NCBI GenBank assembly: GCA_014529675.2
Contig: CP076040.1
Coordinates: 2,095,894 to 2,127,893 of the forward strand
DNA from: Opitutia bacterium ISCC 52
GTDB taxonomy: Bacteria > Verrucomicrobiota > Verrucomicrobiia > Opitutales > UBA2995
Direction of reading: 5' to 3'
DNA length: 32,000 nucleotides
The stretch's first letter is position 1. Every line of letters starts with the position of its first letter. This document shows positions 4,472-32,000 of this stretch, piece by piece. The position numbers were made by a program, and so were the translations under genes. Under the pieces are notes generated by a model, which was not told the DNA's origin, did no database searches, and was given only the letters and a program-made list of their open reading frames with translations.

Positions 4472-4552
4472 AGGCATCTGGCGGAAGTATATAGGGGTAG
4501 GGGACTTTTTTATTGATTGGTTCCCACAATTCTGATGCCTGATGTGCCCCAT

Positions 4553-5464
4553 ATGGAAACAGGACTCATTTTTTCAGGGCAAGGCGCTCAAAAAGTAGGT
4601 ATGGGCAAATCTCTTTACGAGAGCAGTCCCATTGCGAAATCACTCTACGATCAAGCAAACGAAGTGCTAGGCTACGACTTTACGCAGGTCTGCTTCGAAG
4701 GACCGGAAGAAGATTTGACCAAGACAGACGTCTGTCAGCCTGCTTTGTATGTCCATGGATTAGCAGTCCATGCTCTTTGGAAAGAATCCAATCCTAGCAA
4801 CCGACCCGTGTGTGCGTTGGGTCTAAGTCTGGGTGAATTGACTGCATTGGCAGCAGCTGGAGTTTACGACTTTGAAGTCGGCTTGAAGATAGTAGCTGAA
4901 AGAGGGCGACTCATGCAAATGGCCTGTGATCAGACCAATGGAGGCATGGCTAGTGTGCTAGGTGGTGAGAGAGAAGCCGTAAAGCAACTTGCAGCTGAAT
5001 TCGACGTCGATATGGCCAATTTGAACTGTCCTGGCCAAATCGTGATTTCTGGAGAAGCTTCAAAAATAGCACAAGCTGTTGATGCCTTGAAGGATAGGGG
5101 TTTTAAACGCGTTCTTCCTCTAACGGTCGCGGGTGCGTATCACAGTCGTTTAATGGAGCCAGCTCGAGCAGCTTTTGAAGCCTATTTGGCTGATATCCCT
5201 TTTCGTGAACCCGAAATATCTGTGTATTCAAATGTTGATGCTGCAACAAGTGACTCTCCGGATGTCATTAAAGCCAATCTTGTTAAGCAGGTCGTTTCAT
5301 CCGTGCTGTGGGAAGACTGTATGCTGAATGCTCGTTCTTCTTCAGGAGTGGATTCTTTTATTGAATGCGGAATGGGTGGGGTGCTCAAAGGTCTCGCCAA
5401 GCGTATTGACCATGAATTGGTGGTGACTTCTTTTCAGGATTTCTCTGATTTCGAGCAATCCTGA
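4553..5464 (+). CDS. fabD: Malonyl-CoA:ACP transacylase
   Basis: METGLIFSGQGAQKVGMG start, active-site GLSLGE, and a later GAYHS motif. I prefer the ATG at 4553 over the TTG at 4517 used by the ORF track. Confidence 0.9.
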   Translation: METGLIFSGQGAQKVGMGKSLYESSPIAKSLYDQANEVLGYDFTQVCFEGPEEDLTKTDVCQPALYVHGLAVHALWKESNPSNRPVCALGLSLGELTALAAAGVYDFEVGLKIVAERGRLMQMACDQTNGGMASVLGGEREAVKQLAAEFDVDMANLNCPGQIVISGEASKIAQAVDALKDRGFKRVLPLTVAGAYHSRLMEPARAAFEAYLADIPFREPEISVYSNVDAATSDSPDVIKANLVKQVVSSVLWEDCMLNARSSSGVDSFIECGMGGVLKGLAKRIDHELVVTSFQDFSDFEQS

Positions 5465-5567
5465 TTCCCTGGGGAAAAGCCTTGCTTAGGCTCATTTTTT
5501 CGATCCAATTTCCACCTTCCATTCAAAGCTAGGAAAGCTTTGAGTGAAAGCGACTTCGCGCTATTTT

Positions 5568-7370
5568 ATGCCGCCACTTTCTGACATCCGCAATTTTTGC
5601 ATTATCGCCCATGTTGATCATGGGAAAACTACACTGTCTGATCGATTGCTCGAACATACCGAAACCGTTGTGCAGCGCGAGATGAAGGATCAGTTATTGG
5701 ATTCAATGGATCTCGAACGGGAGAGGGGGATTACGATCAAATCACATCCTGTGAGTATGATCTACAAGTCCACGAGAGGTAAAGAATACCGATTTAACCT
5801 CATTGATACTCCGGGGCATGTTGATTTTTCTTATGAAGTATCTAGAAGTCTTGCAGCTGCAGAAGGCGCTTTGCTGCTTATTGATGCTGCACAAGGCGTA
5901 GAAGCTCAAACGGTTGCAAATGCTCATCTGGCTCTGTCTCAGGATTTGGCGATCATCCCGGTTATCAACAAAATCGATTTGCCGGGCGCTGATTTGGACC
6001 TCTGTTTACATCAACTGGAGGAAATCCTGGCTATACCTTCTGAAGAAGCGGTTTTAGCGAGTGCCAAAGAGGGGATTGGAATTGAAGAAATCCTGGAAGC
6101 TGTAGTGGATAGAGTTCCTCCACCTAGATTAGCAGATTACCCGCAAACACGTACCCTTGTTTTTGATTCAGTTTATGACTCCTATAAGGGAGTGATCTGC
6201 TACGTAAGAATGTTTTCCGGAACTTTGAAGCGCGGCGACAAGATACAGATGATGAGCGATGAGGTAAGAGCGGAAGTCAAAGAGGTTGGCATCTTTACGC
6301 CTCAGATGAAAGACGTGGATGAAATTACAGCGGGGAACTCCGGTTATGTTGTGACGAACATCAAAGCGGTGTCCGATATTAAGATTGGTGACACCATCAC
6401 TTTGGAAAAGGATCCCGCCAAAGAAATGCTTCCTGGCTATCAAGAAGTGCGCCCCATGGTCTATAGTGGTATTTACCCAATTGATACTTCCGATTACCAA
6501 AAACTAAAAACAGGTATGGGCAAGTTGCGGCTGAATGACGCCGCGTTTACCTATCAGGCAGAGAGCTCAGTTGCTTTAGGATATGGGTTTCGTTGCGGAT
6601 TTCTCGGATTACTTCATATGGAAATTGTCCAGGAACGTATCCGCCGTGAGTACAATTTAGACATCATAGCCACGTATCCAAGTGTTGTATACAAATTAAA
6701 GACTACGGATCATCAATTCCTGGAAGTCGACAATCCGGTAAATCTTCCAGATCCAGAGACGATTGACTATATGGAAGAACCTATGATCGAGGCTACGATC
6801 CATATACCCAGTGAGTTCATTGGGGACATTTTGGCTTTGGTCATGGATAAGCGCGGACTATGCGAGCATACGGAAACGCTAGATGAGGCTCGGCTAATGT
6901 TGACCTGCAGGCTGCCGCTCAACGAAGTATTGGTCGATTTCAACGACAAGCTTAAGAGTATCACAAAGGGGTACGGCTCAATGGATTATGAGTTCACCGA
7001 CTATCAGCGATCAAAATTAGTGAAGCTAGATATTCTTGTTAACGGGGAACCTGTTGATGCCTTTTCGTCCATTGTTCATATAGATAAGGCGCCGAGTAAG
7101 GGGCGAGAACTGTGCAAGAAGTTGAAAGAAATTCTACCTCGCCAAATGTTTAAGATTCCCGTCCAGGCGAGCATTGGCGGTAAGGTAGTCGCACGGGAAA
7201 CCTTAAGCGCATTTCGAAAGGATGTGACCGCCAAATGTTATGGAGGAGACATTACGCGAAAAAAGAAACTCCTAGAGAAGCAGAAAGAAGGAAAAAAGCG
7301 GATGAAACAGATCGGCAAAGTTTCCATCCCGCAAGAGGCATTCATTGATATCCTCAAAAATTCAAATTAA
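5568..7370 (+). CDS. lepA: Translation elongation factor 4 (LepA)
   Basis: IRNFCIIAHVDHGKTTLSDRLL G1 motif, DTPGHVDF, NKID, and the C-terminal LepA-specific domain ending ...GKKRMKQIGKVSIPQEAF. The ATG at 5568 fits the usual N-terminus better than the GTG at 5544. Followed by lepB, as in many bacteria. Confidence 0.95.
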   Translation: MPPLSDIRNFCIIAHVDHGKTTLSDRLLEHTETVVQREMKDQLLDSMDLERERGITIKSHPVSMIYKSTRGKEYRFNLIDTPGHVDFSYEVSRSLAAAEGALLLIDAAQGVEAQTVANAHLALSQDLAIIPVINKIDLPGADLDLCLHQLEEILAIPSEEAVLASAKEGIGIEEILEAVVDRVPPPRLADYPQTRTLVFDSVYDSYKGVICYVRMFSGTLKRGDKIQMMSDEVRAEVKEVGIFTPQMKDVDEITAGNSGYVVTNIKAVSDIKIGDTITLEKDPAKEMLPGYQEVRPMVYSGIYPIDTSDYQKLKTGMGKLRLNDAAFTYQAESSVALGYGFRCGFLGLLHMEIVQERIRREYNLDIIATYPSVVYKLKTTDHQFLEVDNPVNLPDPETIDYMEEPMIEATIHIPSEFIGDILALVMDKRGLCEHTETLDEARLMLTCRLPLNEVLVDFNDKLKSITKGYGSMDYEFTDYQRSKLVKLDILVNGEPVDAFSSIVHIDKAPSKGRELCKKLKEILPRQMFKIPVQASIGGKVVARETLSAFRKDVTAKCYGGDITRKKKLLEKQKEGKKRMKQIGKVSIPQEAFIDILKNSN

Positions 7371-7435
7371 AGCTGCAGTATTTTTGATTATTTGAACATT
7401 TCACCGGTTTAACCCCAAACCACAGATACGGCTAA

Positions 7436-8701
7436 GTGAACGCATTTTTTAAAAAGAAGAATCATAAGAAGCTCAGGGAACAGGCAGAAAACTGGCTCCG
7501 CTTAGCAGAAAAAGTCTATCACTTCAGGAAAGACATTATTTCTGCGGAAAACATGAAAGATCTTCATGATACATCCTCGATCCTTAATAAGGCGTTAAAG
7601 AAAAAAGGGGATGAAGACTGGGGGAAAGTTCGTTTGGCTTCCGAAGAGCTGGAATCTGTACTCAAACGAAAAGAAGTAGGCGGCTATTTTTATCCACAAA
7701 GTTTTTGGGCAGAGAATGCCGAAATGTTCCTTGTAGCCGCTATTGTGGCTTTAGCTATACGAACCTTTTTTCTTCAACCTTTTAAGATCCCAACCAATTC
7801 CATGTTTCCTTCTTACAATGGAATGACTCATGAGGTTTACGAAGATGGATCTTCGCCCAGTAGCGCTGGAAACCTATTGCGCTTTTTATCCTGGGGCACA
7901 CTTAGGAGAGATGTCGTAGCTCCAGATTCAGGAGAAGTCTTGGTGCCGGTCCGCAGTTTTGAGAGAGTTCCTGGTAGAAAATTCTTTTTGTTTCCAACGA
8001 CTTTAAATGAATTCACAATTCGTGTAGGTGAAGAAGAGACGACCTTTACAGTTCCTGGAGAATTTTATCCATACGAAGCATTCAAGGATGCTTATTTTCC
8101 TGAAGATGATCGTGAATGGAGCGAATTGCTTCAGGATCCGAAAATACAGTCCAAAATTGTTAGGATTCGTGGAAGATTGTTTCTCCGCACAGGAAGAGAA
8201 GTTAAACAAGGAAAGTCGGCGCTGTCATTTGCAATTCATACCGGAGATGCGTTATTCGTAGATCGAATCTCATATCACTTCAAAAGACCTGACGTTGGCG
8301 AAGCGGTTGTTTTTAAAACGGAGAATATTCCTACGATTGAAAAACCAGATAAATATTACATCAAACGCCTGGTTGGAGTTCCTGGGGACGAGCTGCAAGT
8401 TAAAGCACCAAAACTATACAGAAATGGTGAATTGATAACTGGGGCTTCTGCATTTGAAAAGAATGCTACTCAGGAAGAAAAGTATCCTGGTTACTCATAC
8501 AGAGGATTGAGTAGACAACATTATTTGAATAATCCTAATACAACTGTGACCATTCCAGAAGATTATTTCTTCGCTATGGGTGATAATTCACCGCACAGTT
8601 CTGATAGTCGTTACTGGGGGTTCGTTCCAAAAAGAGAAATGGTCGGCAAAGCGATGTTCATCTATTATCCCTTCACGCATCGCTGGGGTATCGCCAAATA
8701 G
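7436..8701 (+). CDS. lepB: Signal peptidase I, unusually long (421 aa)
   Basis: TM segment MFLVAAIVALAIRTFF. Ser box PTNSMFPS, box C HTGDALFVDRISY, Lys box YYIKRLVGVPGD, box E GDNSPHSSDSRYWGFVP. GTG start. Conserved lepA-lepB synteny. Confidence 0.85.
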   Translation: MNAFFKKKNHKKLREQAENWLRLAEKVYHFRKDIISAENMKDLHDTSSILNKALKKKGDEDWGKVRLASEELESVLKRKEVGGYFYPQSFWAENAEMFLVAAIVALAIRTFFLQPFKIPTNSMFPSYNGMTHEVYEDGSSPSSAGNLLRFLSWGTLRRDVVAPDSGEVLVPVRSFERVPGRKFFLFPTTLNEFTIRVGEEETTFTVPGEFYPYEAFKDAYFPEDDREWSELLQDPKIQSKIVRIRGRLFLRTGREVKQGKSALSFAIHTGDALFVDRISYHFKRPDVGEAVVFKTENIPTIEKPDKYYIKRLVGVPGDELQVKAPKLYRNGELITGASAFEKNATQEEKYPGYSYRGLSRQHYLNNPNTTVTIPEDYFFAMGDNSPHSSDSRYWGFVPKREMVGKAMFIYYPFTHRWGIAK

Positions 8702-8891
8702 GCGAATATACTGTTTTTCAGGAAAATAAGTGGAATATAGCGAAATTATCTCAAGACGCACAATATATATTATGTCTAATATAGGGTTGGCGTCATTTCG
8801 CTGTGAAAATGATCCCCCGCCGTATGTTTTCTGTTTAAAAAGAAATTGAAGGATGTTGAGATAAAGCCATGTATTTGGCGGAAACTATATT

Positions 8892-10418
8892 GTGAAGATT
8901 CTCCCATTATTTAATTGGCTTACAGAACGAGGAACTGGTGTTCTTCTTCACCCAACTTGTTTTCCAGGAGACCAAGGTGTTGGTACCCTGGATCATTCTG
9001 CCCGACTGTTCATAGATTTTCTTGAAAAATCCGGCATTACGCATTGGCAAGTTTGCCCACTCGGTCCGACTGGATTTGGCGACTCACCCTATCAAACATT
9101 TTCCGCTTTTGCGGGTAATCCTTATTTGATCGATCTCAAGATAATGGTGGGCATTGGATTGTTAAGCGATGCGGACCTTGAGCCCTTTAGGTTTATGCCA
9201 AGCAGTCGAACTGACTTTGGCCTACTCTATCAAACTAAATGGTTAGTCCTACAGAAAGCTTTTCATTCATTTCAGGAACAAGCTCCTAAACATAAACTCA
9301 CTGAAGAATTCAATTCGTTCAGAATTAAACAGGAGAAATGGCTCAAGCCTTTCGGGTTGTTCATGGCGCTTAAGGAGAAATTTGAAGGTCGTAGTTGGCT
9401 CGAATGGCCTAATGCTTTTCGATCATTTAAATCGTTATCTGATAAAGATCTAGAACTAGAAGTTATTAAATCGGCAGAATCACATGAATTCTACCAGTTT
9501 TTATTTTTCAAACAATGGTCAGAGCTAAAGCAATATGCCAATGGTAAGGGTATTCAAATCATTGGAGACATACCAATTTTTGTATCTTTAGACAGTGTCG
9601 ACGTATGGTGTGACCCAGAGTATTTTCAAATAGATAAAAAGACAGGAAAACCCAAAGCTATGGCAGGTTGTCCTCCAGACTATTTCGCGAAAGATGGTCA
9701 GTTTTGGGGAAATCCACTATATGAGTGGAAAGCAATGAAGGCTGATGGATATTCTTGGTGGATTGATCGCTTTGAGTCTTCCTTTCAATTGTATGATGTC
9801 GTTCGGATTGATCACTTTCGTGGGTTTGAAGCGTATTGGTCAATTCCTGCTAAAGCAAAAACAGCAGCTGAGGGGAAATGGGTCAAAGGGCCTGGGCTTG
9901 CCGTCTTTAAGGCGATCAAAGAAAAGCTCCCCAAAGCTAAGATAATTGCCGAAGATTTGGGTCATATAACTCCTGAAGTCTCTGACCTGTTGGCGGATAC
10001 CGGCCTTCCTGGTATGGCAGTTCTTCAGTTTGCTTTTGGCGGCAGTAGTGACAACTTTTACCTGCCGCATAATCTAAAGGAGAATAGTGTCATTTATCCA
10101 GGTACCCATGATAATGATACGTCGATAAGTTGGTACGAAACCTCCGGTGATGTTATCCAGGATCACGTGCGCAGATATTATGATGTCGACGGCCAGAATG
10201 TCGGTTGGGATTTCATCAGATCCTGTTATCGTTCAGTTTCGAAATTGGCTGTCATCCCACTTCAAGATCTCATGAGTCTTGATGGCTCTGCGCGAATGAA
10301 CGAACCGGGTAATGCCCTTGGTAATTGGCAATGGCGATATCAGACCTGGCAACTGGAGGCCTTGATGAATGAGAGCTCAGATTATTTGGCAAGCTTAGCC
10401 AAGCTGAACGGTCGCTGA
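8892..10418 (+). CDS. malQ: 4-alpha-glucanotransferase (amylomaltase, GH77)
   Basis: 508 aa. GH77 motifs VRIDHFRGFEAYW, IIAEDLGHITPEV, YPGTHDNDT. GTG start; the upstream ATG frame terminates at once. Confidence 0.9.
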   Translation: MKILPLFNWLTERGTGVLLHPTCFPGDQGVGTLDHSARLFIDFLEKSGITHWQVCPLGPTGFGDSPYQTFSAFAGNPYLIDLKIMVGIGLLSDADLEPFRFMPSSRTDFGLLYQTKWLVLQKAFHSFQEQAPKHKLTEEFNSFRIKQEKWLKPFGLFMALKEKFEGRSWLEWPNAFRSFKSLSDKDLELEVIKSAESHEFYQFLFFKQWSELKQYANGKGIQIIGDIPIFVSLDSVDVWCDPEYFQIDKKTGKPKAMAGCPPDYFAKDGQFWGNPLYEWKAMKADGYSWWIDRFESSFQLYDVVRIDHFRGFEAYWSIPAKAKTAAEGKWVKGPGLAVFKAIKEKLPKAKIIAEDLGHITPEVSDLLADTGLPGMAVLQFAFGGSSDNFYLPHNLKENSVIYPGTHDNDTSISWYETSGDVIQDHVRRYYDVDGQNVGWDFIRSCYRSVSKLAVIPLQDLMSLDGSARMNEPGNALGNWQWRYQTWQLEALMNESSDYLASLAKLNGR

Positions 10419-10427: not shown

Positions 10428-11294
10428 TTATTTAGTCAGGAATGAGGAGATTTCGGGTATCAGCGAATCTCTTTCATCATCCAGAATGTAGTGCCCAGAA
10501 TTCGGGTAAGACAATACCTTCGCATTTGGGAAAATGTTTTTCCATTTCTCGAGAAATAGATCGTTGAAGCAAAAATCTTTAATGCCCCAACCAAGCAAAA
10601 TGGGTTTATTTATTAGTTGAGGTAAAAAGGCTTCGATTTCAGATAACAGCTTGAAAGTTTCGTCACTGGTATCGGTAGGAATATCCTGGACGAATCGCAA
10701 AGTAGCGACCCGGTTTTTCCAGTTATTATACGGCAACAGATAACCGTCTTTTTCTATACTGGTCAGCGGTTTCTTGACTGCCATGCTGACAGCTGATCCC
10801 GCGAATCCGTTAAAGCCCCTGACGATTAAATCACCCAACAAGGGGATGCGACACAGGGCGATGCGTTTGGGAATGCGTGGTAAATAGAACGCGGCGGTGT
10901 TTAAAATAACAATTTTCCTTACTTTCTCTGGCAACGCCATTGCTACGCCCATGCCAATGGCCCCGCCCCAATCATGGACGATCAGGTCGAAAAATTCTAA
11001 GTCCAGCCCCTCAATCCATCTTACCGCATTTTCAATGTGTTGCTTAAGATTATAGGGATAATCTTGAGGCTTATCGGATAATCCGCATCCCATGTGATCC
11101 AAAGCCAAGCATCGGAAATTGCCACGCAAAGATTTGATTACATTTCGGTAATAAAATGACCAAGTCGGATTCCCGTGAAGCATAACGACCGCTCGTCCTT
11201 GGCCTTCGTCAACATAGTTCAGGTGACAATCACCAACAGACGCCTCGTTTTGATCGAAGGGATATTCGGACTGAATGTGCTCTGGTATCTCCAC
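10428..11294 (-). CDS. Alpha/beta hydrolase of the haloalkane-dehalogenase/OleB-like type (Asp nucleophile); last gene of the lipid cluster
   Basis: 288 aa. HGNPTWSFYYR, DHMGCGLSDKP, and a nucleophile elbow VHDWGG (Asp, not Ser). 2-nt gap to the upstream KASIII-like gene. Confidence 0.75.
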   Translation of the reverse strand: MEIPEHIQSEYPFDQNEASVGDCHLNYVDEGQGRAVVMLHGNPTWSFYYRNVIKSLRGNFRCLALDHMGCGLSDKPQDYPYNLKQHIENAVRWIEGLDLEFFDLIVHDWGGAIGMGVAMALPEKVRKIVILNTAAFYLPRIPKRIALCRIPLLGDLIVRGFNGFAGSAVSMAVKKPLTSIEKDGYLLPYNNWKNRVATLRFVQDIPTDTSDETFKLLSEIEAFLPQLINKPILLGWGIKDFCFNDLFLEKWKNIFPNAKVLSYPNSGHYILDDERDSLIPEISSFLTK

Positions 11295-11296
11295 TA

Positions 11297-12328
11297 CTAA
11301 AACTGAATGGCTAACATCAAGCTGCTCAATCCACTGCCAATTCCAAGAAGCGCGACTTTATCGCCAACTTGCACCGCTTTATCTTCAACTGCTTTTGCTA
11401 AAGTTAGAGGACATGATACCGAACCTACATTGCCCCATGAAGGATAAGTGATGTAGTCTTTATCCAGGTTTAAATTCAAGGCCTCAAATAACTGTCTTCG
11501 ATGAGCTGAACCTACCTGATGGCATATAAAACGATCGATATCTCCAGCATCCCATTCATTTTCTTCCAGAAATGCCCTCCAGGTTGTTTGGGCCAATTGA
11601 ATTCCGGCCTTTAGAAGCTCTTCCGAATCAGTTAGCATTTGAAGCTCTCCCTGTCCTGAAGCTCCGCCTTCACAAAGTAAATTACTTGCGGAATCGGTTC
11701 TAACGCTACCACCAAGCAGCTGTGGAGTTTCAGGAGCCAGGACCTTTCTGCAAAGAACAGCAGCTACACCGCCGCCACCGATTGTTAAATTTGCAAAATA
11801 AGGCTTAACAGATTTCCGGGTTTGCTCTGGTTTTTTTAGCTCACCAAGCGTCCAATCCATGAGCGACTTTCCGTTTTCACCAGAACAAACCAAGGCTCTC
11901 TCGAGTTGGCCTGATTCAATCATAGAGCCAACCAAGGTCAGTGCATTTAGAAACCCCAGACAGGCATTGGACAAGTCCCAGATTTGGGCTTTGGGGCTCA
12001 TTTCAAGTAATCCATGCACATAAGATGCGGTTGCTGGCTCCATTTTGTCACGGCAGACAGCCGCATGCGCAACCAGGTCGAAACTATCTGTGTCAAAACG
12101 ACTGTTTGCCAATGCAACCTTTCCAGCAGCTGCGCTGATGCTTGATGGCATGGTTTCTACCGGGTAAAAACGTCTTTCCTGGATGCCCGTCATTAATTCC
12201 AGGCGTCCCTTGGGAAGCCGTAATCTTTCGTAAGTTTCGCTCAGCTCTTCTTCAATCGCTTCCGAGCTCAGAACTTCTGGCGGCGTATCATAGGCGATAC
12301 TCTCAATGACTACATTGCTAAAACGCAT
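11297..12328 (-). CDS. KASIII (FabH)/OleA-like thiolase-fold condensing enzyme
   Basis: 343 aa. Cys-His-Asn triad motifs SNACLGF, ICHQVGS, WGNVGSVS. C-terminal ALLGIGSGLS. Confidence 0.8.
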   Translation of the reverse strand: MRFSNVVIESIAYDTPPEVLSSEAIEEELSETYERLRLPKGRLELMTGIQERRFYPVETMPSSISAAAGKVALANSRFDTDSFDLVAHAAVCRDKMEPATASYVHGLLEMSPKAQIWDLSNACLGFLNALTLVGSMIESGQLERALVCSGENGKSLMDWTLGELKKPEQTRKSVKPYFANLTIGGGGVAAVLCRKVLAPETPQLLGGSVRTDSASNLLCEGGASGQGELQMLTDSEELLKAGIQLAQTTWRAFLEENEWDAGDIDRFICHQVGSAHRRQLFEALNLNLDKDYITYPSWGNVGSVSCPLTLAKAVEDKAVQVGDKVALLGIGSGLSSLMLAIQF

Positions 12329-12331
12329 AAA

Positions 12332-13147
12332 TCAGGATTCCGGTCTCTCCGGACGCATCGCAAGCCTCACCACGTCCTTGTCGAAGTAATTACAATCCAT
12401 GCCGGCATCGACTTTTATATTGCCTCCATTGATACCGCTTGAGCTTGGGCTCAGTAAAAAAACTCCAGCATTTGCCACTTCCTGAGTCTGGACTGCCCTA
12501 CCCCTGAATGTAATTTTTTCTGAATACAAATAGCTCTCCAGGTATCCCGGAATGCCCGCTGAAGCACTCGTCTTTAATAAGCTCGGATTTACAGTATTGA
12601 ATCGTACGTTTGTCGATGAGCTGAATGATTTTGCCAGATACCGCATGGCACCATCGAGCGCTGCCTTTATGGGAGACATATAGCCATAGTTTTCAGCAGT
12701 GACTCGATGTGAGGATATGCCAATCGCAAGAATGGAGGCGTCATCTGTTAGGTTTGACTTAAACGCATTTACGACTTCAACAATGCTAAAGCATGATATT
12801 TGAGTCGCTTGAAGAAAGTCTTCTCTTTTTGTCTCATGGAAAGGTTTTATGCCTTCACTGTAATTGGCGAAAGCAATGGAATGCACAATTCCATTAAGAT
12901 CGGGGAAGTCCTTTGTGACAGCTTCTGCTAAAGCATCTATTTCCTCTTTGTTTTCAACGTCGCATATATAAACCGGTTTACCATGGAGGAGTTTGTTGAG
13001 GCTTTCTTTTCTGGCTTCCGATCTAACGCTATAAATGACCGTAGCACCCTCCTCTTCCAGGGTTTTTGCAATATGGAAAGCTACTGATTTCCGGTTGGCC
13101 ACACCCATTACCAGGATTACCCGGCCTTCTAAGTTTAAAAAGCTCAT
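12332..13147 (-). CDS. FabI-like enoyl-ACP reductase (SDR family)
   Basis: 271 aa. [15 protein letters not shown]-terminus and [12 protein letters not shown] (Tyr-x6-Lys) parallel the FabI GVASKLSIAY / NYNVMGLAKASL pattern, recalled from E. coli FabI. Confidence 0.75.
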
Positions 13148-13156
13148 AATCGCAAA

Positions 13157-13594
13157 TTAATCTCCTTCAACTAGAGCGAGCGTGTATTCAAGGTTCAGCG
13201 ACCGTTTGTCTCCATTCTTCACGACTCCTTTGCAGATGAAGAACATCCCCATCTTTTCTTTTATGCTCACCTCGATTGTCAAAACATCACCCGGTCGAAC
13301 CATCTCGCGGAATCTAGCGTTCATAATCTTGCCTAAAACAGGAGTGACTTGTTTGCCTTCGTAATCTCCAGAATACTTCTGTACTAAAAATACAGCAGCG
13401 CTTTGAAAAACTGCCTCGCAGATGATCACACCAGGCATGATAGGGTTTCCCGGGTAGTGTCCTTGAAAAAAGTCGAGGTCTTCGCGAACTGTAAACTGAG
13501 TGATGGCACCATCCTCTCGCATTTCAACAACCTCATCTACAAATAGAAAGGGTGGTCTATGTGGAATGGCTCTTAATACTTCGTCGGATGACAT
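13157..13594 (-). CDS. FabZ/FabA-like 3-hydroxyacyl-ACP dehydratase (hot-dog fold)
   Basis: 145 aa. IPHRPPFLFVDEV and GHYPGNPIMPGV motifs. Confidence 0.85.
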   Translation of the reverse strand: MSSDEVLRAIPHRPPFLFVDEVVEMREDGAITQFTVREDLDFFQGHYPGNPIMPGVIICEAVFQSAAVFLVQKYSGDYEGKQVTPVLGKIMNARFREMVRPGDVLTIEVSIKEKMGMFFICKGVVKNGDKRSLNLEYTLALVEGD

Positions 13595-13595
13595 A

Positions 13596-15068
13596 TTAAA
13601 CGGCAGCGGAATTAACCGCTTCCTTATTTAGGTTATAGAGAAATTTGTCCATTTTGTTGGCCGTGATAATTCCGTAATTTATAGCACCTAGCCAGCCTGA
13701 CATGATAATGCCTACGGAACCTGCATGATGAAGGCCTGCAATTTGGTCTGGTAAATTCATCGAGACAGGCAGTCCTTCAAATTTAGTTCCAAAACTGGTG
13801 CCCAATGGATGGCGAGTGTAGCTCTCCACCGTTTTTGGAGTCGCAGCTTCAAGGTGGCTAATTTTACTACGCGCATCTGGGATATATTTTTCCAATGCTA
13901 CGACGGATTCCTCTATGATGCGATTCTTATGGAATTCATATTCTTCGTCACTGAGTTTATCCCAGTCTTCAAAAGTGGCGTTAATGGAAGTGACGATGGT
14001 TGTTCGACCGAGTTCCGGTCGGGTATCAGGATAGTAAACTGAAAAAGTACGACTCGTGGTATTAAAATCCACAAGTTCATCGCTACTGAATTCTTCGCTT
14101 TCTGAAGTAAAGACGAGATCTCCTATATCTGGAATTGTCTCTCCTTCTTTTATGCCAATATAGATCTGGCATGAGCTGCTATTTATTCGAACAGGTTCAA
14201 CTTCGTTCAGGTAATCTTCAGAAAAGTGCTCTTCCCCAACTAGACCTTTTATCGTCCCAACGATATTTGCATTAGAAAGGACTGATTTGGTGCGAATGAA
14301 ACGTGTCTCTTCGCTTTTTCGTGAGCGAAGCACCACGCCAGTAATGTGCTTTTCATCGCCTTCCCCTGCTACTTCGATTTTTTCAACCAGGACATTTTTT
14401 CTTAATTCGACACCGTTCGACTTCATTTCTTCGACCATCTTATTTATGAGTACGTCGGTTCCACATTTAAATGTGAAAACGCCTTTGCTCATGAAGTTGG
14501 AGAAGACAATACCGTAGGTGATCGCCGGATCGTTAAGCGTTGATCCATTTGCGTAGGTAATGGGTTCCATCAACAAGCGATGTACATCTTTCCGTCCAGG
14601 GAAGAATTCTTCAAACAAATCGCCCGTCGTTCGATCGTCCTGATCAAAGAAGTCCATTCCTCTGAGGTGATCGTAGAATCCTTCTACATGGTCTCGATCG
14701 ACTCCGAAATGATTCACCAATTTGTCTGTGAAATCAACACGATCAAAGGTGGTCCAAATATTGAATTGCGGATTAATGAATCGCACATTCTTGAGCTGAA
14801 CGATCATGTCAGCGATTTCCTTGGTCCAATATTTTCGGCATGATTTTTTCATGCCGATCGGAAACCCATGAAGCGAAATATCGAAAATGTGTCTACCAGG
14901 GCGTTTAAACCATGTCGCTAATCCACCATATTGATAATGGTGCTCGAGCAGTAGCACTCGATGCCCATTTTTAGCGAGGTAGTTAGCGCCGGACAAGCCG
15001 CCCAAACCGCTACCGATTACGACTGCATCGTATTCGTCTTCAACACCTTCTAACCAGTCTTTTGCCAT
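13596..15068 (-). CDS. FAD-dependent oxidoreductase, phytoene desaturase (CrtI)/amine-oxidase family, copy B
   Basis: N-terminal [35 protein letters not shown] Rossmann motif. About 490 aa. Has a C-terminal Gly-rich segment [17 protein letters not shown] prefer the ATG at 15068; the ORF-track TTG is at 15074. Confidence 0.75.
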
Positions 15069-15169
15069 GTACAAGTGGATGGAATAAAATAAGCCCTTAT
15101 GGGTAAAGGGAAAGTCCTGCCTACGTCAACTGTTCCGCCTGGAAAATAGCGGTTTCTGAAGTTCCGGAG

Positions 15170-16603
15170 TTAGTCTCTGAGTCCGTAGAGATTTGCGACA
15201 GTAATTCCACTGAGCATGGCGCCTACAATTCCGAGGAATCCTTGATCGGTTCCGCAAATGAATAAGTTATCCAGATGAGTCTTGCCCGGTTTATTCTTTA
15301 TAGGCGATCCGTATACGGCTCCCCCTAGTCTGCCAGTGAATTTTGTCACCGTAGTGGGTGTAAACATATCCGTGGCGATCGACTTTGATCGAATGGTCTT
15401 GAATGAGTCTACAGGCAGGAACTTGCACGCGGACTCGCCAATTCTATCAAACCAGCGGGTTTTCTCTAAATAGTATTCTTCTGGTCCCAGCTTTTTCCAG
15501 GTCTCGTAATTTGCCTGAGCGGTAAAACGAATGATTCCTTCGCTTAGTTGCCGTCCATCTGAGTATTCATAGTTGTTAGGCATACAAATGACCCCACTTC
15601 TCGGGTCTACGGCTTCTTTGGGGCATTCAAACTCGAATCGTTCCCAGTCATTAAAGAAAACAATGGTATCTTCAATCCCAAGGTCTCTTGGCTGATCCTT
15701 CAGTATGCTGATGGTCTCCGTGAAGCTCAAACGCCCTACATTCTCCTCTAGCCCTTGTTCAGAATAGCCTTCGCAGATTCGCAACGTTTCCGGCCATCCT
15801 GCACATGAAATAACCTTTTCTGCTGTGATGGTTCGACCATTGTCGAGTTCTAGGCCCGTAACTCGTTGGCTGTCAGAAAAAATCTTTTTAACGCCCAATT
15901 TCATGCATCGCTCTACTCCGGCCTCTTTCATCTTGGCCCTCATAATTCGCATCATGACTCTTATGCCTTCAAAAGGCCGTGCGAATCCCTCGTAGAAAAG
16001 CGATTTGAACAAGATGACGAATTGCCCGAATTCCATGTCCTTCTCTCGTGCATTGCCATAGAACATCAACGGGCAAAAAAGCATGTCTATAAGGACGGGG
16101 TGAGTCAGGCACTCAGCAACCACTGCTCGCGCCGATACATCTGGGTAATCGAGCTCATTGTCATCCCATTCGTTGATCTTAGCTAGTAGCTTTCGAAAAC
16201 CATTCATTTGATCGGGGAACTCCCGTTCGATTTCCGATTCAAGGAAGGCAAATCCGTTTCCGAACTTCAGGTCAATTCCTGGAAATGCAATTCGGGAAAA
16301 TGCCTGCGGATTGAGGTCCAATTCATCGCGAGAAATGCGAAGCTGCCGAATGATCTTACCTAGCGGAGTTCCTTTAACACTGGAAGGTACGTAATTAGTT
16401 AAGGCATGTAGCCCTACATCATAGGCTCGACCTTCAATACTGTAGAAACTGTTGAGCCCTCCTATTACATTGTGACGCTCCAGCAGACATACTGATTTGC
16501 CGAAGTGCGAGAGACGAATGGCAGCGGCCATACCGGACATACCGGCGCCTATTACGACCACATCATAGTGGTCTAGATCAGGTTTCCTTATAGCGAAGTT
16601 CAA
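15170..16603 (-). CDS. FAD-dependent oxidoreductase, phytoene desaturase (CrtI)/amine-oxidase family, copy A
   Basis: YDVVVIGAGMSGMAAAIRLSHFGKSVCLLERHNVIGG motif and C-terminal FICGTDQGFLGIVGAMLSG. The only in-frame start before the FAD motif is the TTG at 16603, which directly abuts the ACP stop (TAA-TTG). Confidence 0.75.
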   Translation of the reverse strand: MNFAIRKPDLDHYDVVVIGAGMSGMAAAIRLSHFGKSVCLLERHNVIGGLNSFYSIEGRAYDVGLHALTNYVPSSVKGTPLGKIIRQLRISRDELDLNPQAFSRIAFPGIDLKFGNGFAFLESEIEREFPDQMNGFRKLLAKINEWDDNELDYPDVSARAVVAECLTHPVLIDMLFCPLMFYGNAREKDMEFGQFVILFKSLFYEGFARPFEGIRVMMRIMRAKMKEAGVERCMKLGVKKIFSDSQRVTGLELDNGRTITAEKVISCAGWPETLRICEGYSEQGLEENVGRLSFTETISILKDQPRDLGIEDTIVFFNDWERFEFECPKEAVDPRSGVICMPNNYEYSDGRQLSEGIIRFTAQANYETWKKLGPEEYYLEKTRWFDRIGESACKFLPVDSFKTIRSKSIATDMFTPTTVTKFTGRLGGAVYGSPIKNKPGKTHLDNLFICGTDQGFLGIVGAMLSGITVANLYGLRD

Positions 16604-16864
16604 TTAGCTGCCTTGAAGGGCTGCGAACTTCGGCTCGAGGTAATTGGCACAACTATCTAGTGATGCTAGCTCCTGGTAATCGGATTCAGGGACCTCAATG
16701 CCGTGTTGCTTCCGCAGTTCCATCACAATATCCAGAAAATCCATGGAATCTAGTTCCAATTGATCCCTGAGACGCACATCTGGTGAAATGTCAGTAAGGT
16801 CTTCATCGGGAGCGATTTCTGCGATTATCTTTAAAACGATATTCTTGATGTCGTCTTTGGTCAT
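16604..16864 (-). CDS. Dedicated acyl carrier protein
   Basis: 86 aa, acidic. Phosphopantetheine attachment motif LELDSMDFLDIVMEL. Confidence 0.85.
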   Translation of the reverse strand: MTKDDIKNIVLKIIAEIAPDEDLTDISPDVRLRDQLELDSMDFLDIVMELRKQHGIEVPESDYQELASLDSCANYLEPKFAALQGS

Positions 16865-16879
16865 TGTCTGTAAATCTAC

Positions 16880-18115
16880 TTAGTCCTGAAACCGGGTCAC
16901 GACAAGCGAAGAATTGATTCCCAGCATGCCAAAAGAGTTGTTGAAAATGGCATCAACTCGGTCCAATTCAACCGGTTCTCCGATTACAAGGTTCCCCACG
17001 TTGCACTGGGGGTCCAACTCGTCAACATTAATTGTAGGATGGACCATTTTATCTATAAAAGCCGGCAAATTTCCTGCTAATTCAAGCGCTCCAGCCGCTC
17101 CCATAGAATGGCCGATAAAGCTCTTTGTGTTGTTAATATAGGTAGAATCACTTTTGCCAAAAACCTCCCCAATCGCCTCACATTCCTGAATATCCCCTTG
17201 CTTCGTAGAAGTGGCGTGCGTGTTAACGATCTGAATGTCCGAACCTTCAATATTTGCGCGTTTCAACGCGGCTCTCATACATTGGGCCTGCCGCTCTGGA
17301 TTAGGTAGAACATAATCGGTGGCATCCGAGTTCAACGCCCAGCCTGAAACCTCCGCTATGATGTTTGCTCCTCGGGCTTTCGCATCATCCAAGCGTTCCA
17401 GGCAATAAAGGCATCCTCCCTCACTCACGACTATGCCATTACGCTCCATGTCGAAGGGTCGACTCGCTTTCGTTGGATCCTCATGCGTTGCCAGTGCATT
17501 CTGGCTTTTGAAGGCGGCAAAAATACCGAAGGTATGAATGCTTTCACTGACGCCACCTCCTAACGCGAAATCGATCTCTTCCAGTTGCAGCATCTGGCAG
17601 GCTTGAATTACCCCGGCATTACCGGCTGCGCATGCGGCGCCTATGGCATAGTGCGGCCCCGTAATCATGAGATTAATTGTGATTTCTCCGGCAGGATTGT
17701 TGGCTACGGTCCGTGGATTATGGTGATGCGTCCAGAATCGTGTATCGTAGTCATATTTGGAGATATTGAAGATTTCATTTTCTGTCTCTACGTTGCCATG
17801 CTCTGTCGCTCCTACATAGACTCCAACTCGGCTCTTATCGAAGGTTTCCCAGTCAATACCCGAATTGGTAATTGCCTCATTAGCACAATAAATTCCTACG
17901 CTTCCAGCGCGGGTGCCAATTCGGACCGCTTTCTTGGTCTGGTACTTCAGTGGATCAAAATCGCATACGCCCGCATGGACGGTGCCCATATAACGGGTTT
18001 CGATATTCTGAATCGTGGAAACCTTGTTCAGCAAGTTGGCACGGTATTCCTCAAGGGTATTTCCATTGGGAGCAGTCAGGCCAATGCCAGTGATAACGAT
18101 TCGATGGTGGGACAT
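16880..18115 (-). CDS. Beta-ketoacyl-ACP synthase, FabF/FabB type (Cys-His-His); first gene of the lipid cluster
   Basis: 411 aa. Active-site Cys in GPHYAIGAACAAG, and His motifs NTHATST and IGHSMGAAG. Confidence 0.85.
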   Translation of the reverse strand: MSHHRIVITGIGLTAPNGNTLEEYRANLLNKVSTIQNIETRYMGTVHAGVCDFDPLKYQTKKAVRIGTRAGSVGIYCANEAITNSGIDWETFDKSRVGVYVGATEHGNVETENEIFNISKYDYDTRFWTHHHNPRTVANNPAGEITINLMITGPHYAIGAACAAGNAGVIQACQMLQLEEIDFALGGGVSESIHTFGIFAAFKSQNALATHEDPTKASRPFDMERNGIVVSEGGCLYCLERLDDAKARGANIIAEVSGWALNSDATDYVLPNPERQAQCMRAALKRANIEGSDIQIVNTHATSTKQGDIQECEAIGEVFGKSDSTYINNTKSFIGHSMGAAGALELAGNLPAFIDKMVHPTINVDELDPQCNVGNLVIGEPVELDRVDAIFNNSFGMLGINSSLVVTRFQD

Positions 18116-18233
18116 AGTGGGATTAAACAGTCGATGTAAGTTAAAGATTTGGGAAATTAAAAGGTTAATATTGCCCGTATAGATACCTTCTGTTCCGATT
18201 CTGCTTCACCTCTCAAATTGGCACTATTTATTG

Positions 18234-19222
18234 ATGAAGATTCTTGTTGTCGGTGGTGCCGGCTATATAGGCAGTCACTGTGTTCGTCAGATTATCTCTG
18301 CAGGCCACCAACCAGTAGTTGTTGATAACCTGGTTTTGGGTCATCGAAAGGCTGTTTCTGGTGATGTTCCCTTTTACCAAGGCGATTTGGGTGATGAAGG
18401 CTTTGTCCTGCCATCCTGGAAAATGAGAAAATAGACATCGTCATGCATTTTGCTGCTTTTGCGGCGGTTGGTGAAAGCGTTCAGGATCCGATGATGTATT
18501 ACCTGAACAACGTAGCTGCTACGATTCATCTGTTAAACTCTATGAAGAAAGCAGGGGTAAACAAATTCATTTTTTCATCAACTTGCGCAACGTTTGGCAT
18601 CGTAGAAGATTTGCCCATCACCGAAAACCACCTTCAGAAGCCGATCAATCCTTACGGTCAGACGAAGCTGGATATAGAGAATTTCCTCAGATCATATGCT
18701 TCATCTACCGATTTCTGATTTGCCGTATTTCGCTACTTTAATGCGGCTGGCGCATCCGAGGATGGATCAATTGGTGAAGATCATGATCCTGAATTCAGCT
18801 TAATCCCCCTCGCGATCCAGTCTGCTATTGGGCAAAGAAGCAGTTTGAAACTATGTGCCAATGATTACCCCACGCCTGATGGCACTTGATTGAGGGATTA
18901 TGTGCATGTCGATGATCTATCCAGTGCCCATATAGCTGCCTTTGAGAAGCTTGAAGAACCAGGTCAGCAGCTCTTTTTCAACCTAGGCATTGGGAAGTCC
19001 TCCTCAGTGAAGGAAGTGATTTCAACAGTAGAAAAAGTGAGTGGCCTAAGCGTTCCATTTGAATATGCGGATCGTCGACCCGGTGATCCTCCGGCCTTTT
19101 TTGCCGATTCGACAATGGCTAACGACATCTTGGGTTGGGAACCCAAATTTCCTGACTTAGAAGCTATCGTAGAAACCGCCTGGAAGTGGAACTCGAGTCA
19201 TCCGGATGGATTTGATGACTAA
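18234..19222 (+). pseudogene. galE: UDP-glucose 4-epimerase remnant (three ORF fragments: one frameshift, two in-frame TGA)
   Basis: [14 protein letters not shown]; [17 protein letters not shown]; FSSTCATFG; NPYGQTKL; FAVFRYFNAAGASEDGSIGEDHDPE; DYPTPDGT*LRDYVHVDDL. The frameshift is near 18408-18413. The in-frame TGAs are at 18716-18718 and 18887-18889. Confidence 0.85.
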
Positions 19223-19240: not shown

Positions 19241-20737
19241 TCATTGCTCTTCTTTATACTGCTCGATTCGTTTGCGAAGCGTGGCTCGAGTAATGCCAAG
19301 GATGGCTGAAGTGCGAACCTGATTTCCGCCGGTTTCTTCCAGCGCTCGAACAATCATGGCATGCTCGATCAGGGTCAAAATGTCTTCGTTGGCCCCTTCT
19401 CGGAGTTTTTTGTAAAGCAACTCATAGCTGTCTTCTATGCTCAGCACCGAAGGGGCTGGATCAGTGGCAGTGGTGCTTTCGTCTTCATCTTGAGCGTCCG
19501 AACTTACTTCCGTAGAAGTCGACAATTTCTTCAGATCCAAATTGCGCTCGTTTGCCCAATCATGAATTTCGGAAGGAAGGTCTTTGGAAAGTATGGTATC
19601 ACCCTGCGCCAGGACTGATGCGCGATTTATTACGTTTTCAAGTTCACGCACATTGCCAGGCCATGGATACTGTTCTAATAATGAGCGAACATCTGCACTA
19701 ATGCGGTTAATTCGACTTTTCCCTTGTTTGGCGAGGCGCTGGAGCATGAAGTCTATTAACTCAGGGATATCGGCGCTTCGCTCCTTTAAATTCGGCAGGC
19801 GTATGCGGGCTACATTGAGTCGGTAGTAGAGGTCTTCCCTGAAATCTTTGTCCTCGACCAACTTTTCCAAGTCCTTGTTGGTCGCGGCAACCAGACGGAC
19901 GTTGACCTTAAGGGTTTCAGAGCCCCCTACTCGCTGAATCTCCCCTTCCTGCAATACGCGCAGCACTTTTGTTTGGGTCGCGAGTTCCATATCACCGATC
20001 TCGTCCAAAAAGATGGTGCCTCCATCGCAGAGCTCAAATTTACCTTTTCGAGTTTGAGCCGCCCCTGTAAACGCACCTTTTTCATGCCCAAATAACTCAC
20101 TCTCAATCAAGTTTTCCGGGATAGCAGCGCAATTGACCGCGATGTAGGGGCCGCCTGATCGAAGGCTGTGCTGGCAAATGGCTTTGGCGATCAATTCCTT
20201 ACCCGTTCCACTTTCGCCGGTAATCAGGACAGTAACTTCACTGGCTGCAATTTGCCCGATCTGCTTAAACACCTCCTGCATGGGCTGAGAACTTCCCACT
20301 ATGCCCTCCTTATAGTCGTCGCTATTTAGGAGAGGTTCATACTCCTCCGTGCTTTCTCTGTCGGCTTTCGCTTCCAGTGCTTTTTCGATGAGCGACATCA
20401 CCTTCTCCATATCGAAGGGTTTGATGATGTAGTCGAATGCTCCAAATTTCATGGCTTCAATGGCTGTCTGAGTAGTGCCATAGGCCGTCATCATTATGAT
20501 ATGACAGCTATCTCGGTCACCCATGAGATGCTGGAGTGTCTCCAGTCCCGAGATGCCCCCCATTCGGTTATCGAGAAAAATAATATCCGGTAGCTCCTTG
20601 GCAGCGACTTCTATCCCTTTTTCACCACTGCCAGCCTCTATTACTTCGAAATTGCGAGTTTGTAAGACACGGCTCAGTGAATAGCGAACTTCATCGTCGT
20701 CATCGATAATCAAAATTTTTGCAGTCATTCCTTCCAT
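19241..20737 (-). CDS. Sigma-54-dependent response regulator (NtrC family: receiver + AAA+ + Fis-type HTH)
   Basis: Receiver [11 protein letters not shown]...IIFLDNRM...IIKP. Walker A GESGTGKE, the GAFTGA loop ([10 protein letters not shown]), and a C-terminal [23 protein letters not shown]. Confidence 0.9.
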
Positions 20738-31582: not shown

Positions 31583-32000
31583 TTAATTTTTTATAACCGG
31601 AAGGCTGGCCGCCGCTACGGCTTGTCCATGACGTTTGTCTTGTTCGTTAGGAGTTCTTAAATTTATTTTATCGGCAAATTCCGGGAACTCTTCCTGAAGG
31701 ACCTGCTTTCCTTTCTCGATTATGATCTCGCCTCCCTCACCGGAAGTCACACGACCGAGAATGAGTAGGTTATGAAAATCATAAAGATCTGCATAGTGAG
31801 CGATGGAATAGCCAAAGTAAGTTCCGATCGTGTCGTAAACTTTTGGGGCTTCATCGCTCCCCCGATTCATTTCTTCCTGGAGGTATTCAAGTTGTTCAGG
31901 AAAACCCATGCCTTCCTCCACTTCAATTCCCGCATGAGGCAATAGGCGTGCCACTGTTTGTTGAGAAAAATACTGTGCCCCTACCCCAATGTCTTCAGAC
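31583..32000 (-). CDS. C-terminal part of a ROK-like sugar kinase/regulator family protein (5' end outside the window)
   Basis: The frame stays open upstream of the ORF-track GTG to the window edge (...SEDIGVGAQYFSQQTVARLL...). The block IGTYFGYSIAHYADLYDFHNLLILGRVTSGEGG...RHGQAVAAASLP resembles proteins I recall being annotated as ROK family in Bacteroidota/PVC. This is a memory-based call. Confidence 0.45.
   Translation of the reverse strand, partial: SEDIGVGAQYFSQQTVARLLPHAGIEVEEGMGFPEQLEYLQEEMNRGSDEAPKVYDTIGTYFGYSIAHYADLYDFHNLLILGRVTSGEGGEIIIEKGKQVLQEEFPEFADKINLRTPNEQDKRHGQAVAAASLPVIKN

Follow-up and report, generated by a model that had tools for sequence, protein, structure and literature searches.

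A FAS-II-like gene set with two CrtI-fold flavoenzymes adjoining predicted oleA and oleB genes in an Opitutales bacterium

The eight-gene cluster

The stretch of 32,000 nucleotides analyzed here (the window) comes from Opitutia bacterium ISCC 52, contig CP076040.1, positions 2,095,894 to 2,127,893. At 10428-18115 it carries eight co-directional open reading frames (ORFs) on the minus strand. They code for a ketoacyl synthase (KS), an acyl carrier protein (ACP), two flavoenzymes which we call FlA and FlB, a dehydratase (DH), an enoyl reductase (ER) and, as genes 7 and 8, the predicted olefin biosynthesis proteins OleA and OleB (Table 1). From KS to OleB, the gaps between the ORFs are 15, 0, 95, 1, 9, 3 and 2 nt. 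The GC content of the cluster is 43-49%, the same as that of the flanks, and identical loci are found in several metagenome assemblies. A first-pass annotation made from the letters alone had described these eight genes, and our ORF check of the window reproduced its coordinates, gaps and strand. A Pfam run on the eight proteins likewise assigned every family that it had predicted, and the catalytic motifs of the KS, ACP, DH, ER, KASIII-like enzyme and hydrolase are all present.

Table 1. Features of the cluster and its conserved neighbors (positions in the window)
Feature	Position	Strand	Description
FabD	4517..5464	+	Canonical malonyl-CoA:ACP transacylase; TIGR00128 306 bits, cutoff 261; conserved neighbor
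OleB (gene 8)	10428..11294	-	OleB orthologue, haloalkane-dehalogenase-like alpha/beta hydrolase, 288 aa; Pfam Abhydrolase_1; HDWGG
OleA (gene 7)	11297..12328	-	OleA orthologue, 343 aa; Pfam ACP_syn_III/ACP_syn_III_C; Cys-His-Asn; NF006720 passed
ER	12332..13147	-	FabI-type enoyl-ACP reductase paralog, 271 aa; Pfam adh_short_C2, 197 bits
DH	13157..13594	-	FabZ-type 3-hydroxyacyl-ACP dehydratase paralog, 145 aa; Pfam FabA; 1 nt after FlB
FlB	13596..15074	-	CrtI/amine-oxidase-fold FAD enzyme B, 492 aa; Pfam NAD_binding_8/Amino_oxidase; most conserved component, marker of the system
FlA-FlB junction	15075..15169	.	95 nt between the modules; splits KS-ACP-FlA from FlB-DH-ER-OleA-OleB
FlA	15170..16603	-	CrtI/amine-oxidase-fold FAD enzyme A, 477 aa, TTG start; Pfam NAD_binding_8 + Amino_oxidase
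ACP	16604..16864	-	Dedicated acyl carrier protein, 86 aa; Pfam PP-binding; phosphopantetheine site LDSMD
KS	16880..18115	-	FabF-type beta-ketoacyl-ACP synthase paralog, 411 aa; Pfam ketoacyl-synt N+C; Cys-His-His triad intact
Response regulator	19241..20737	-	Sigma-54-dependent response regulator; Pfam Response_reg, Sigma54_activat, HTH_8; conserved neighbor upstream of KS

Four of the genes resemble components of a type-II system for making fatty acids (FAS II). The triad of the KS is seen as GAACAAG, NTHATST and IGHSMGAAG, the His/Glu motif of the DH as PHRPPFLFVD...GHYPGNPIMPGVIICE and the Tyr-x6-Lys motif of the ER as NYGYMSPIK. These intact motifs, together with the canonical FabD gene 5 kb from the cluster, could suggest that the block is the housekeeping FAS II of the organism. 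We regard this as very improbable. All four proteins stay below the NCBIfam equivalog cutoffs, that is, fabF for the KS (302 bits, cutoff 494), acpP (acyl_carrier) for the ACP (39 bits, cutoff 70), fabZ for the DH (105.5 bits, cutoff 113) and the best FabI model for the ER (177 bits, cutoff 370). The NCBI annotation pipeline PGAP gives generic names to KS, ACP, DH and ER and names none of them FabF or FabI; the KS is just called "KS family protein". Two flavoenzymes and the predicted OleA and OleB are interleaved, and in many Opitutales species the set is absent from the neighborhood. Moreover, Pfam and profile scans of the window proteins detected in the cluster no ketoreductase (KR), FabH, phosphopantetheinyl transferase, AMP-ligase or acetyl-CoA carboxylase. 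The first-pass annotation had likewise noted as absent a FabG-type KR, a phosphopantetheinyl transferase, an AMP-ligase and any glycosyl or acyl transferase, and none of these lies in or beside the cluster. It had also listed a malonyl transferase as lacking, which is right for the cluster itself but has to be corrected for the surroundings in view of FabD, which stands apart from any fab operon. Its view of a dedicated FAS-II-like set with its own ACP agrees with the four equivalog scores. We strongly infer that the cluster is such a set, apart from the housekeeping FAS II of the organism.

The two flavoenzymes share 26% sequence identity. FlA keeps its FAD-binding GxGxxG motif only with the TTG start at 16603; in public gene calls, which begin 21 codons downstream, the motif is cut off. 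FlA and FlB have the fold of CrtI, CrtD, CrtISO and RetSat (4REP, 4DGK and 5MOG) as well as their N-terminal FAD-binding motif. The AF2 model of FlB (pLDDT 85.5) has the carotenoid desaturase 4REP as its top fold match (TM 0.71, 18% identity); the model confirms the predicted CrtI fold but not an activity. The identity to the CrtI family is, however, only 15-18%, and on crtI_fam FlA reaches 50 bits and FlB 66 bits, where the cutoff is 238. The Pfam and profile scans detected neither CrtB nor CrtE in the window and no carotenoid gene context, so that the carotenoid reading, already dismissed by the first-pass annotation, finds no footing here.

Gene 7 scores 411 bits on NF006720 (cutoff 285). 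Its best matches in the Protein Data Bank (PDB) are the structures of OleA from Xanthomonas campestris (3ROW, 3S21 and 4KTI; E = 5e-57, residues 1-339), whereas the best FabH structure matches at E ~1e-20. In a HMMER alignment to 3ROW the residues Glu117, Cys143, His285 and Asn315 (X. campestris numbering) are identical, and Glu117 is the OleA-specific base. In addition, the JGI/KEGG label of a homologue from its cluster at 90% identity or more is "acyl-CoA:acyl-CoA alkyltransferase". From its sequence, gene 7 is identified as an OleA orthologue and thus as a predicted head-to-head Claisen thiolase. Gene 8 begins 2 nt past oleA. It reaches 157 bits on the haloalkane dehalogenase models, which is under their cutoffs, and matches haloalkane dehalogenases of the PDB at E = 1e-32 to 1e-35. 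It has the Asp nucleophile in HDWGG and a C-terminal GH with the histidine, and over its full length it is 47% identical to OleB of the complete oleABCD set of Smithella. Because of this fold, the HDWGG motif, its place after oleA and the identity to the Smithella protein, gene 8 is identified as an OleB orthologue of the beta-lactone decarboxylase family. In the Ole pathway, the head-to-head joining of two acyl chains by OleA is followed by a reduction by OleD and by the formation of a beta-lactone by OleC, which OleB then decarboxylates to the cis-olefin (Smith et al. 2020). The first-pass annotation had called genes 7 and 8 "KASIII/OleA-like" and an "Asp-nucleophile alpha/beta hydrolase"; the families were right, and OleA and OleB are the more specific assignments.

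Occurrence in Opitutales and in other phyla

Relatives of FlB occur in at least 593 species genomes, and the locus mapping covers the best 80 loci. Essentially all of these 80 are Opitutales records, with FlB identities of 63-87% across the order. One of them (CAXQRK010000079.1) is deposited as a metagenome-assembled genome (MAG) of "Polaribacter sp."; its FlB is 66% identical to that of the window and typical for Opitutales, so that this is probably a binning error. The FlB family is compact, with 167 representatives at E<1e-30 and only few full-length lineages at 37-50% identity.

Order and strand are the same in 25 of 25 Opitutales species-level loci which hold all eight genes. The arrangement is therefore not due to chance, and the conservation of gene order, on which the first-pass annotation had made its reading depend, is indeed found. 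Among the 48 loci that could be judged on both sides, 21 have the eight genes, 10 only FlB-DH-ER-OleA-OleB and 15 FlB alone. The FlA-FlB junction measures 11-2335 nt in the relatives and may contain inserted unrelated genes. Since this junction is variable and many genomes keep the right-hand part alone, the eight genes behave as two modules, KS-ACP-FlA and FlB-DH-ER-OleA-OleB, which are split at the 95-nt gap. We also considered whether the insertions of the relatives harbor OleC, OleD or other lipid genes, but the ORFs there are unrelated and variable. In one Verrucomicrobiota MAG, FlA is tandemly duplicated between ACP and FlB (locus L035, 7004-9934), and both copies are 54-55% identical to FlA of the window. 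Beside FlB in the genomes with FlB alone no Pfa-type genes were found, and a search for FlB on plasmids gave no match. Recent horizontal transfer or a genomic island was rejected as an explanation of the cluster, as its GC content matches the flanks and the synteny of the flanks is conserved.

The first-pass annotation had dismissed an Ole reading for want of OleC and OleD. This objection does not hold, as Opitutales keep a separate oleC-oleD pair. Close to FlB, the Opitutales locus L044 holds an AMP-binding ORF which passes NF006754 and reaches 495 and 448 bits on the models for olefin beta-lactone synthetase, the next family being at 160. This OleC also occurs in Coraliomargarita sp. SDUM461004 and on a Puniceicoccaceae contig (L087), and 9 nt behind it both encode a protein of the 3-beta-HSD family with 330-333 aa. 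The protein of the Puniceicoccaceae contig scores 399 bits on the OleD model (next family 159), and the Coraliomargarita OleD is 72% identical to it. On the Puniceicoccaceae contig, FlB is situated 3.4 kb upstream of the oleC-oleD pair, with neither DH nor ER nearby. A search with an Opitutales OleC as seed listed 120 matches, all at 72% identity or more and from marine Puniceicoccaceae or Coraliomargarita; the source organism is not among the matches listed. From these sequences, the ole system of Opitutales appears to be split, with oleAB at the module and oleCD at a separate locus. In the literature, oleC is reported in Opitutaceae MAGs, and ole genes and olefin production are reported for Verrucomicrobia. 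Planctomycetota, Deltaproteobacteria, Nitrospinae, Oligoflexia and Opitutae are listed as ole carriers (Smith et al. 2020 and a further source); the supplements of Smith et al. (2020) do not list an Opitutae entry.

The profile of FlB lineages places the distant ones in Planctomycetota, Deltaproteobacteria, Nitrospinae and Oligoflexia, all of which are among the ole carriers listed above. FlB proteins from Smithella, Nitrospinae, Oligoflexia and Pirellulaceae are 53-58% identical to FlB of the window. In Smithella (L090) and in Deltaproteobacteria HGW-13 (L093), a single packed operon has the order KS-ACP-FlA-OleA-OleB-OleC-OleD-FlB-KR-DH-ER. Between the Smithella operon and the window the identities are 60% (KS), 59% (ACP), 46% (FlA), 45% (OleA), 47% (OleB), 56% (FlB), 42% (DH) and 57% (ER); the in-operon OleC and OleD share 42 and 46% identity, respectively, with those of Opitutales. 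In a third lineage (L094), FlB-KR-DH-ER is accompanied by a convergent oleA-B-C-D operon 4 kb away. Thus, the objection to an Ole reading fails here as well, since the full oleABCD set is located inside the same operon in two deltaproteobacterial genomes and adjacent to it in the third lineage. The Nitrospinae locus reads KS-ACP-FlA-FlB-KR-x-DH-ER, where x is a further gene, the Oligoflexia locus consists of FlB, KR and a fusion of DH and ER, and some Planctomycetes have FlB alone. A FabG-type KR directly follows FlB in L090 (11428-12168), L091 (11419-12162), L092 (11498-12295), L093 (11431-12171) and L094 (11445-12182), and the Smithella KR reaches 281 bits on the FabG model. The FAS and flavoenzyme genes are thus physically linked to ole genes in several independent arrangements and in lineages that are not related to each other.

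These arrangements bear on the possibility that the module makes a special membrane fatty acid, for example an anaerobic unsaturated or conjugated one, and that oleAB are mere neighbors, or that OleA and OleB, where OleC and OleD are lacking, lead to ketones or some other product. OleA alone reportedly gives ketones. The Nitrospinae and Oligoflexia loci hold the module with no ole genes within 10 kb, FlB is on its own in many genomes, and the window and the 10 kb upstream of it yielded neither OleC nor OleD. We nevertheless find this explanation quite unlikely. The linkage to ole takes several independent forms, namely oleAB in Opitutales, oleCD in Puniceicoccaceae, the two related deltaproteobacterial operons and the convergent operon of the third lineage. 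In the window, ER, OleA and OleB are only 2-3 nt apart from one another. Furthermore, Nitrospina is reported to have ole genes and Oligoflexia to have OleA homologues.

Two natural fusions offer useful Rosetta-stone evidence. The 625-aa protein P0123 joins FlB to a FabZ-type dehydratase, and the Oligoflexia locus L092 encodes a 444-aa fusion of DH and ER (12282-13616). The FlB fusion, the spacing of 1 nt between FlB and DH and the invariant order FlB-(KR)-DH-ER place FlB in the elongation cycle. Because of this fusion or adjacency to FabZ-type dehydratases, the substrate of FlB is presumably bound to ACP, unlike the substrates of the CrtI family. It could be argued instead that the flavoenzymes act after the condensation: the FAS part would supply a particular, possibly saturated chain, and FlA and/or FlB would desaturate, saturate or isomerize the olefin or the beta-lactone in the manner of CrtI, CrtD, CrtISO or RetSat. 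The fold and the nearest structures are those of carotenoid desaturases acting on free C40 hydrocarbons, JGI calls homologues "all-trans-retinol 13,14-reductase", FlA and FlB directly flank oleABCD in Smithella, and in Puniceicoccaceae FlB is found near oleCD in the absence of DH and ER. But the fusion and the invariant order put FlB among enzymes with ACP-bound substrates, FlA always adjoins KS and ACP, and an action after the condensation would leave the need for a whole dedicated set of KS, ACP, DH and ER unexplained. We therefore consider it unlikely, although it deserves to be kept in mind.

Proposed mechanism and comparison with known systems

We suggest that the eight genes probably constitute one half of a split Ole system together with a dedicated type-II acyl-chain factory which feeds OleA, the end product probably being a C31:9-type polyunsaturated olefin. 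The pathway could proceed in the following steps. KS, DH and ER, aided by a FabG-type KR and FabD encoded elsewhere, would extend an acyl chain carried by the dedicated ACP. FlB would act directly with DH on ACP-bound enoyl or hydroxyacyl intermediates, and FlA beside KS and ACP. Together they might place or move double bonds without O2, be it as redox-neutral isomerases dependent on FAD (turning trans-2 into cis-3 or cis-2, like CrtISO on carotenoids) or as acyl-ACP dehydrogenases. The ER would reduce selected cycles only, like PfaD. The special, probably polyunsaturated acyl-ACP would then be passed to OleA for head-to-head condensation; the cluster contains no thioesterase and no CoA ligase. 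Reduction by OleD and formation of the beta-lactone by OleC, both encoded elsewhere in Opitutales, would follow, and finally decarboxylation by OleB would give a very-long-chain olefin which could be kept in the membrane. The general logic proposed by the first-pass annotation, that an ACP-tethered chain is built, modified by the flavoenzymes and then condensed or released, fits these findings.

Chains of the polyunsaturated fatty acid (PUFA) type require two kinds of enoyl isomerization. Since the DH is of the FabZ type and not of the FabA type, the two flavoenzymes could supply this chemistry. That they would do so independently of O2 agrees with their occurrence in Smithella, which is a strict anaerobe. 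A comparable concept is known from FabX of Helicobacter pylori, a flavin-dependent decanoyl-ACP dehydrogenase/isomerase; the other isomerases of anaerobic unsaturated fatty acid synthesis are FabA, FabM and FabN. As is proposed for FlA and FlB, FabX works without O2 as a flavoenzyme of a type-II cycle and puts a cis double bond into a chain carried by ACP. It is, however, an FMN/[4Fe-4S] enzyme with the nitronate-monooxygenase fold, which is unrelated to the CrtI fold, and no sequence relation to FlA or FlB is expected.

With the OleABCD systems of X. campestris, Shewanella oneidensis and Micrococcus luteus, the window shares adjacent OleA and OleB with conserved catalytic residues and 45-47% identity to the copies of a complete operon. 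The known contexts are oleABCD, oleBC fusions and oleACD (Smith et al. 2020). Here, in contrast, the system is split into oleAB and oleCD, and oleAB are in an operon with KS, ACP, DH, ER and two flavoenzymes, unlike any characterized ole cluster.

The closest functional parallel is the combination of Pfa and Ole. There, ole is linked to a dedicated secondary lipid synthase which has a carrier protein of its own as well as KS, DH and ER and which feeds OleA; for the module such feeding is proposed. In Shewanella, OleA draws 16:4n-3 straight from the Pfa ACP domains, which leads to C31:9. Geobacter bemidjiensis has the tandem pfaDABC-oleABCD-pfaE and makes C31:9. The Smithella operon has the same layout, in that the synthase genes flank ole. 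However, Pfa is a type-I megasynthase which produces cis bonds with dehydratase/isomerase domains of the FabA type, whereas here we find discrete type-II proteins and a FabZ-type DH; Pfa also works without CrtI-fold flavoenzymes, of which the cluster has two. The KS scores 81 bits on the PfaA model (cutoff 1010) and is not part of a multidomain type-I protein; the resemblance is functional and positional only. By analogy, the six-gene module could be the type-II functional counterpart of the Pfa synthase.

A second parallel is given by Desulfotalea psychrophila and Kuenenia stuttgartiensis, in which paralogs of FabF, ACP and FabZ lie beside flavoproteins of the amine-oxidase family (Rattray 2009; Javidpour 2016). 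D. psychrophila lacks a Pfa-like polyketide synthase (PKS) and yet makes C31:8 and C31:9, and it has FAS II clusters with amine-oxidase-family genes (Rattray 2009). The flavoproteins of these Desulfotalea and Kuenenia clusters fail to complement CrtI (Javidpour 2016), and neither study made a link to ole genes. On the other hand, the radical-SAM enzymes, methyltransferases and non-canonical ketoacyl synthases of these clusters do not occur in the window cluster. Compared over the about 128 N-terminal residues available, the anammox proteins kuste3336 and kuste3607 are 21-31% identical to FlA and FlB, whereas cross-phylum orthologues of FlA and FlB reach 46-56%. Over this N-terminal part they do not qualify as orthologues, and the window contains no radical-SAM gene of the kind found in the anammox ladderane cluster. 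The comparison with ladderane candidates drawn by the first-pass annotation is thus loosely right for the kind of gene set but does not extend to these proteins or to radical-SAM genes.

That the cluster is of an aryl-polyene or flexirubin pigment type, or of an anammox ladderane or unusual-lipid type, strikes us as highly implausible. It is true that the DH has weak ApeI-like and ApeP-like Pfam matches, that the Smithella KR reaches 247 bits on the flexirubin FlxB model and that FAS II clusters with phytoene-desaturase-like genes were discussed as ladderane candidates (Rattray 2009). But the ApeI-like match scores 19.9 where the cutoff is 28.5, an ER is present, and genes for an aromatic starter, for export, for an acyltransferase or for a radical-SAM enzyme are absent from the window. 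Over the part available, kuste3336 and kuste3607 do not qualify as orthologues, and Opitutales are not anammox bacteria. The ER, the low ApeI-like score and the lack of accessory genes in the window also bear out the first-pass annotation where it had set the aryl-polyene reading aside.

For the product, a polyunsaturated hydrocarbon of the C31:9 type is, by analogy, our leading guess. It is based on D. psychrophila, which makes C31:8 and C31:9 in spite of lacking a Pfa-like PKS and which has clusters of FAS II and amine-oxidase-family genes. It is further based on a 2011 survey of pfa-like clusters in which Verrucomicrobia are never mentioned, although the phylum has ole genes and olefins. 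Most of the organisms tested for such hydrocarbons reportedly made C31:9. The first-pass annotation had left the product as unknown, and formally this is still true.

Several observations weigh against a split Ole system fed by the module. OleC and OleD were found neither in the 32-kb window nor in the 10 kb upstream, and that the source organism has a complete Ole pathway is deduced from its relatives. Every version outside Opitutales has the KR after FlB, but no Opitutales version, that of the window included, has it at this place. FlB is found by itself among unrelated neighbors in many genomes, which means that it may have a role outside Ole as well. In structure, FlA and FlB come nearest to carotenoid desaturases (18% identity), whose substrates are free hydrocarbons and not ACP thioesters. 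The polyunsaturated nature of the product is something that we only infer, and the "phytoene dehydrogenase" genes of D. psychrophila are only candidate counterparts of FlA and FlB.

We also venture, as a tentative possibility, a bolder proposal. FlA and FlB may be the double-bond installers of an unrecognized flavin-dependent, O2-independent type-II "PUFA synthase", which would act on ACP-bound intermediates and make methylene-interrupted, 16:4-like chains with a FabZ-type DH. OleABCD would convert these into olefins of the C31:9 type in bacteria without Pfa that belong to five phyla or more (Verrucomicrobiota, Planctomycetota, Desulfobacterota, Nitrospinota and Oligoflexia).

Neighboring genes and wider meaning

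On the other side of the cluster from the KS, the flank FabD-LepA-signal peptidase-GH77 (4-alpha-glucanotransferase), situated at 4517-10418 on the plus strand, is syntenic with the cluster in many Opitutaceae. This co-conservation indicates vertical inheritance. Upstream of the KS, the sigma-54-dependent response regulator is a conserved neighbor in many eight-gene loci, but there is no evidence for a regulatory role: the sigma-54 scan gave no convincing -24/-12 element upstream of the KS. Scans for sigma-70 promoters, terminators and sigma-54 elements found nothing above chance, and a weak terminator-like hairpin in the FlA-FlB junction (15110-15094) does not rise above chance either. The single perfect match to the sigma-54 -24/-12 consensus in the window (TGGCACGCCTATTGC) is located at 31939-31953 on the minus strand. 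It coincides with the start of an ORF at 31583-31954 and is upstream of genes for a PIG-L deacetylase and a sulfatase.

Divergent from the KS lies a pseudogene of a GalE-type UDP-glucose 4-epimerase (18233-19222, plus strand), damaged by a single frameshift around 18407-18413 and by TGA stops at two places in the frame. In the relative L072 the gene is intact at the same position (330 aa, 63-71% identical). The decay looks real and not like a sequencing error, since metagenome contigs of the same species (L002, L003 and L006) also call fragments. As a member of the epimerase family next to the KS this gene was considered as a candidate OleD and was rejected, given its 63-71% identity to the GalE copy of L072. 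Further away, a T2SSE/PilT-like ATPase of type II/IV secretion (3369-4468, plus strand) has a frameshift near 4115-4139 which leaves an ORF of 261 aa. Sister contigs of the same species have an intact 367-aa ATPase, and CP076041.1 has no gene call there. The frameshift is either a strain-specific pseudogene mutation or an assembly indel.

Both the Ole pathway as such and its occurrence in Verrucomicrobia are already known. In the literature searched we found no description or characterization of the type-II/flavoenzyme module as a feeder of Ole, although other papers could have noted it, and a 2026 review still calls the "desaturase" of related clusters hypothetical. There is thus a substantial chance that the module contains new enzymology. 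Its pairing with OleA and OleB suggests an unstudied way of making special acyl chains for long-chain olefins.

Long-chain olefins of the C31:9 type are widespread membrane hydrocarbons of marine, freshwater and anoxic bacteria, and the Pfa megasynthase is the sole known source of their polyunsaturated precursors. The locus described here and its complete counterparts of the Smithella type point to a second route, in which the enzymes are small and discrete and two CrtI-fold flavoproteins would carry out the key steps. If this is true, it would be a new enzymatic solution for oxygen-independent desaturation or isomerization of fatty acyl chains, and the compact 11-gene operon could be used for engineering polyunsaturated hydrocarbons. 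It would also shed light on what "phytoene-desaturase-like" genes do in unusual lipid clusters, which has long been debated, and answer a question open since 2009, that is, how polyunsaturated hydrocarbons are synthesized anaerobically in organisms of the Desulfotalea type. Finally, it would account for the olefins of Verrucomicrobia, Planctomycetes and sulfate reducers which lack Pfa.

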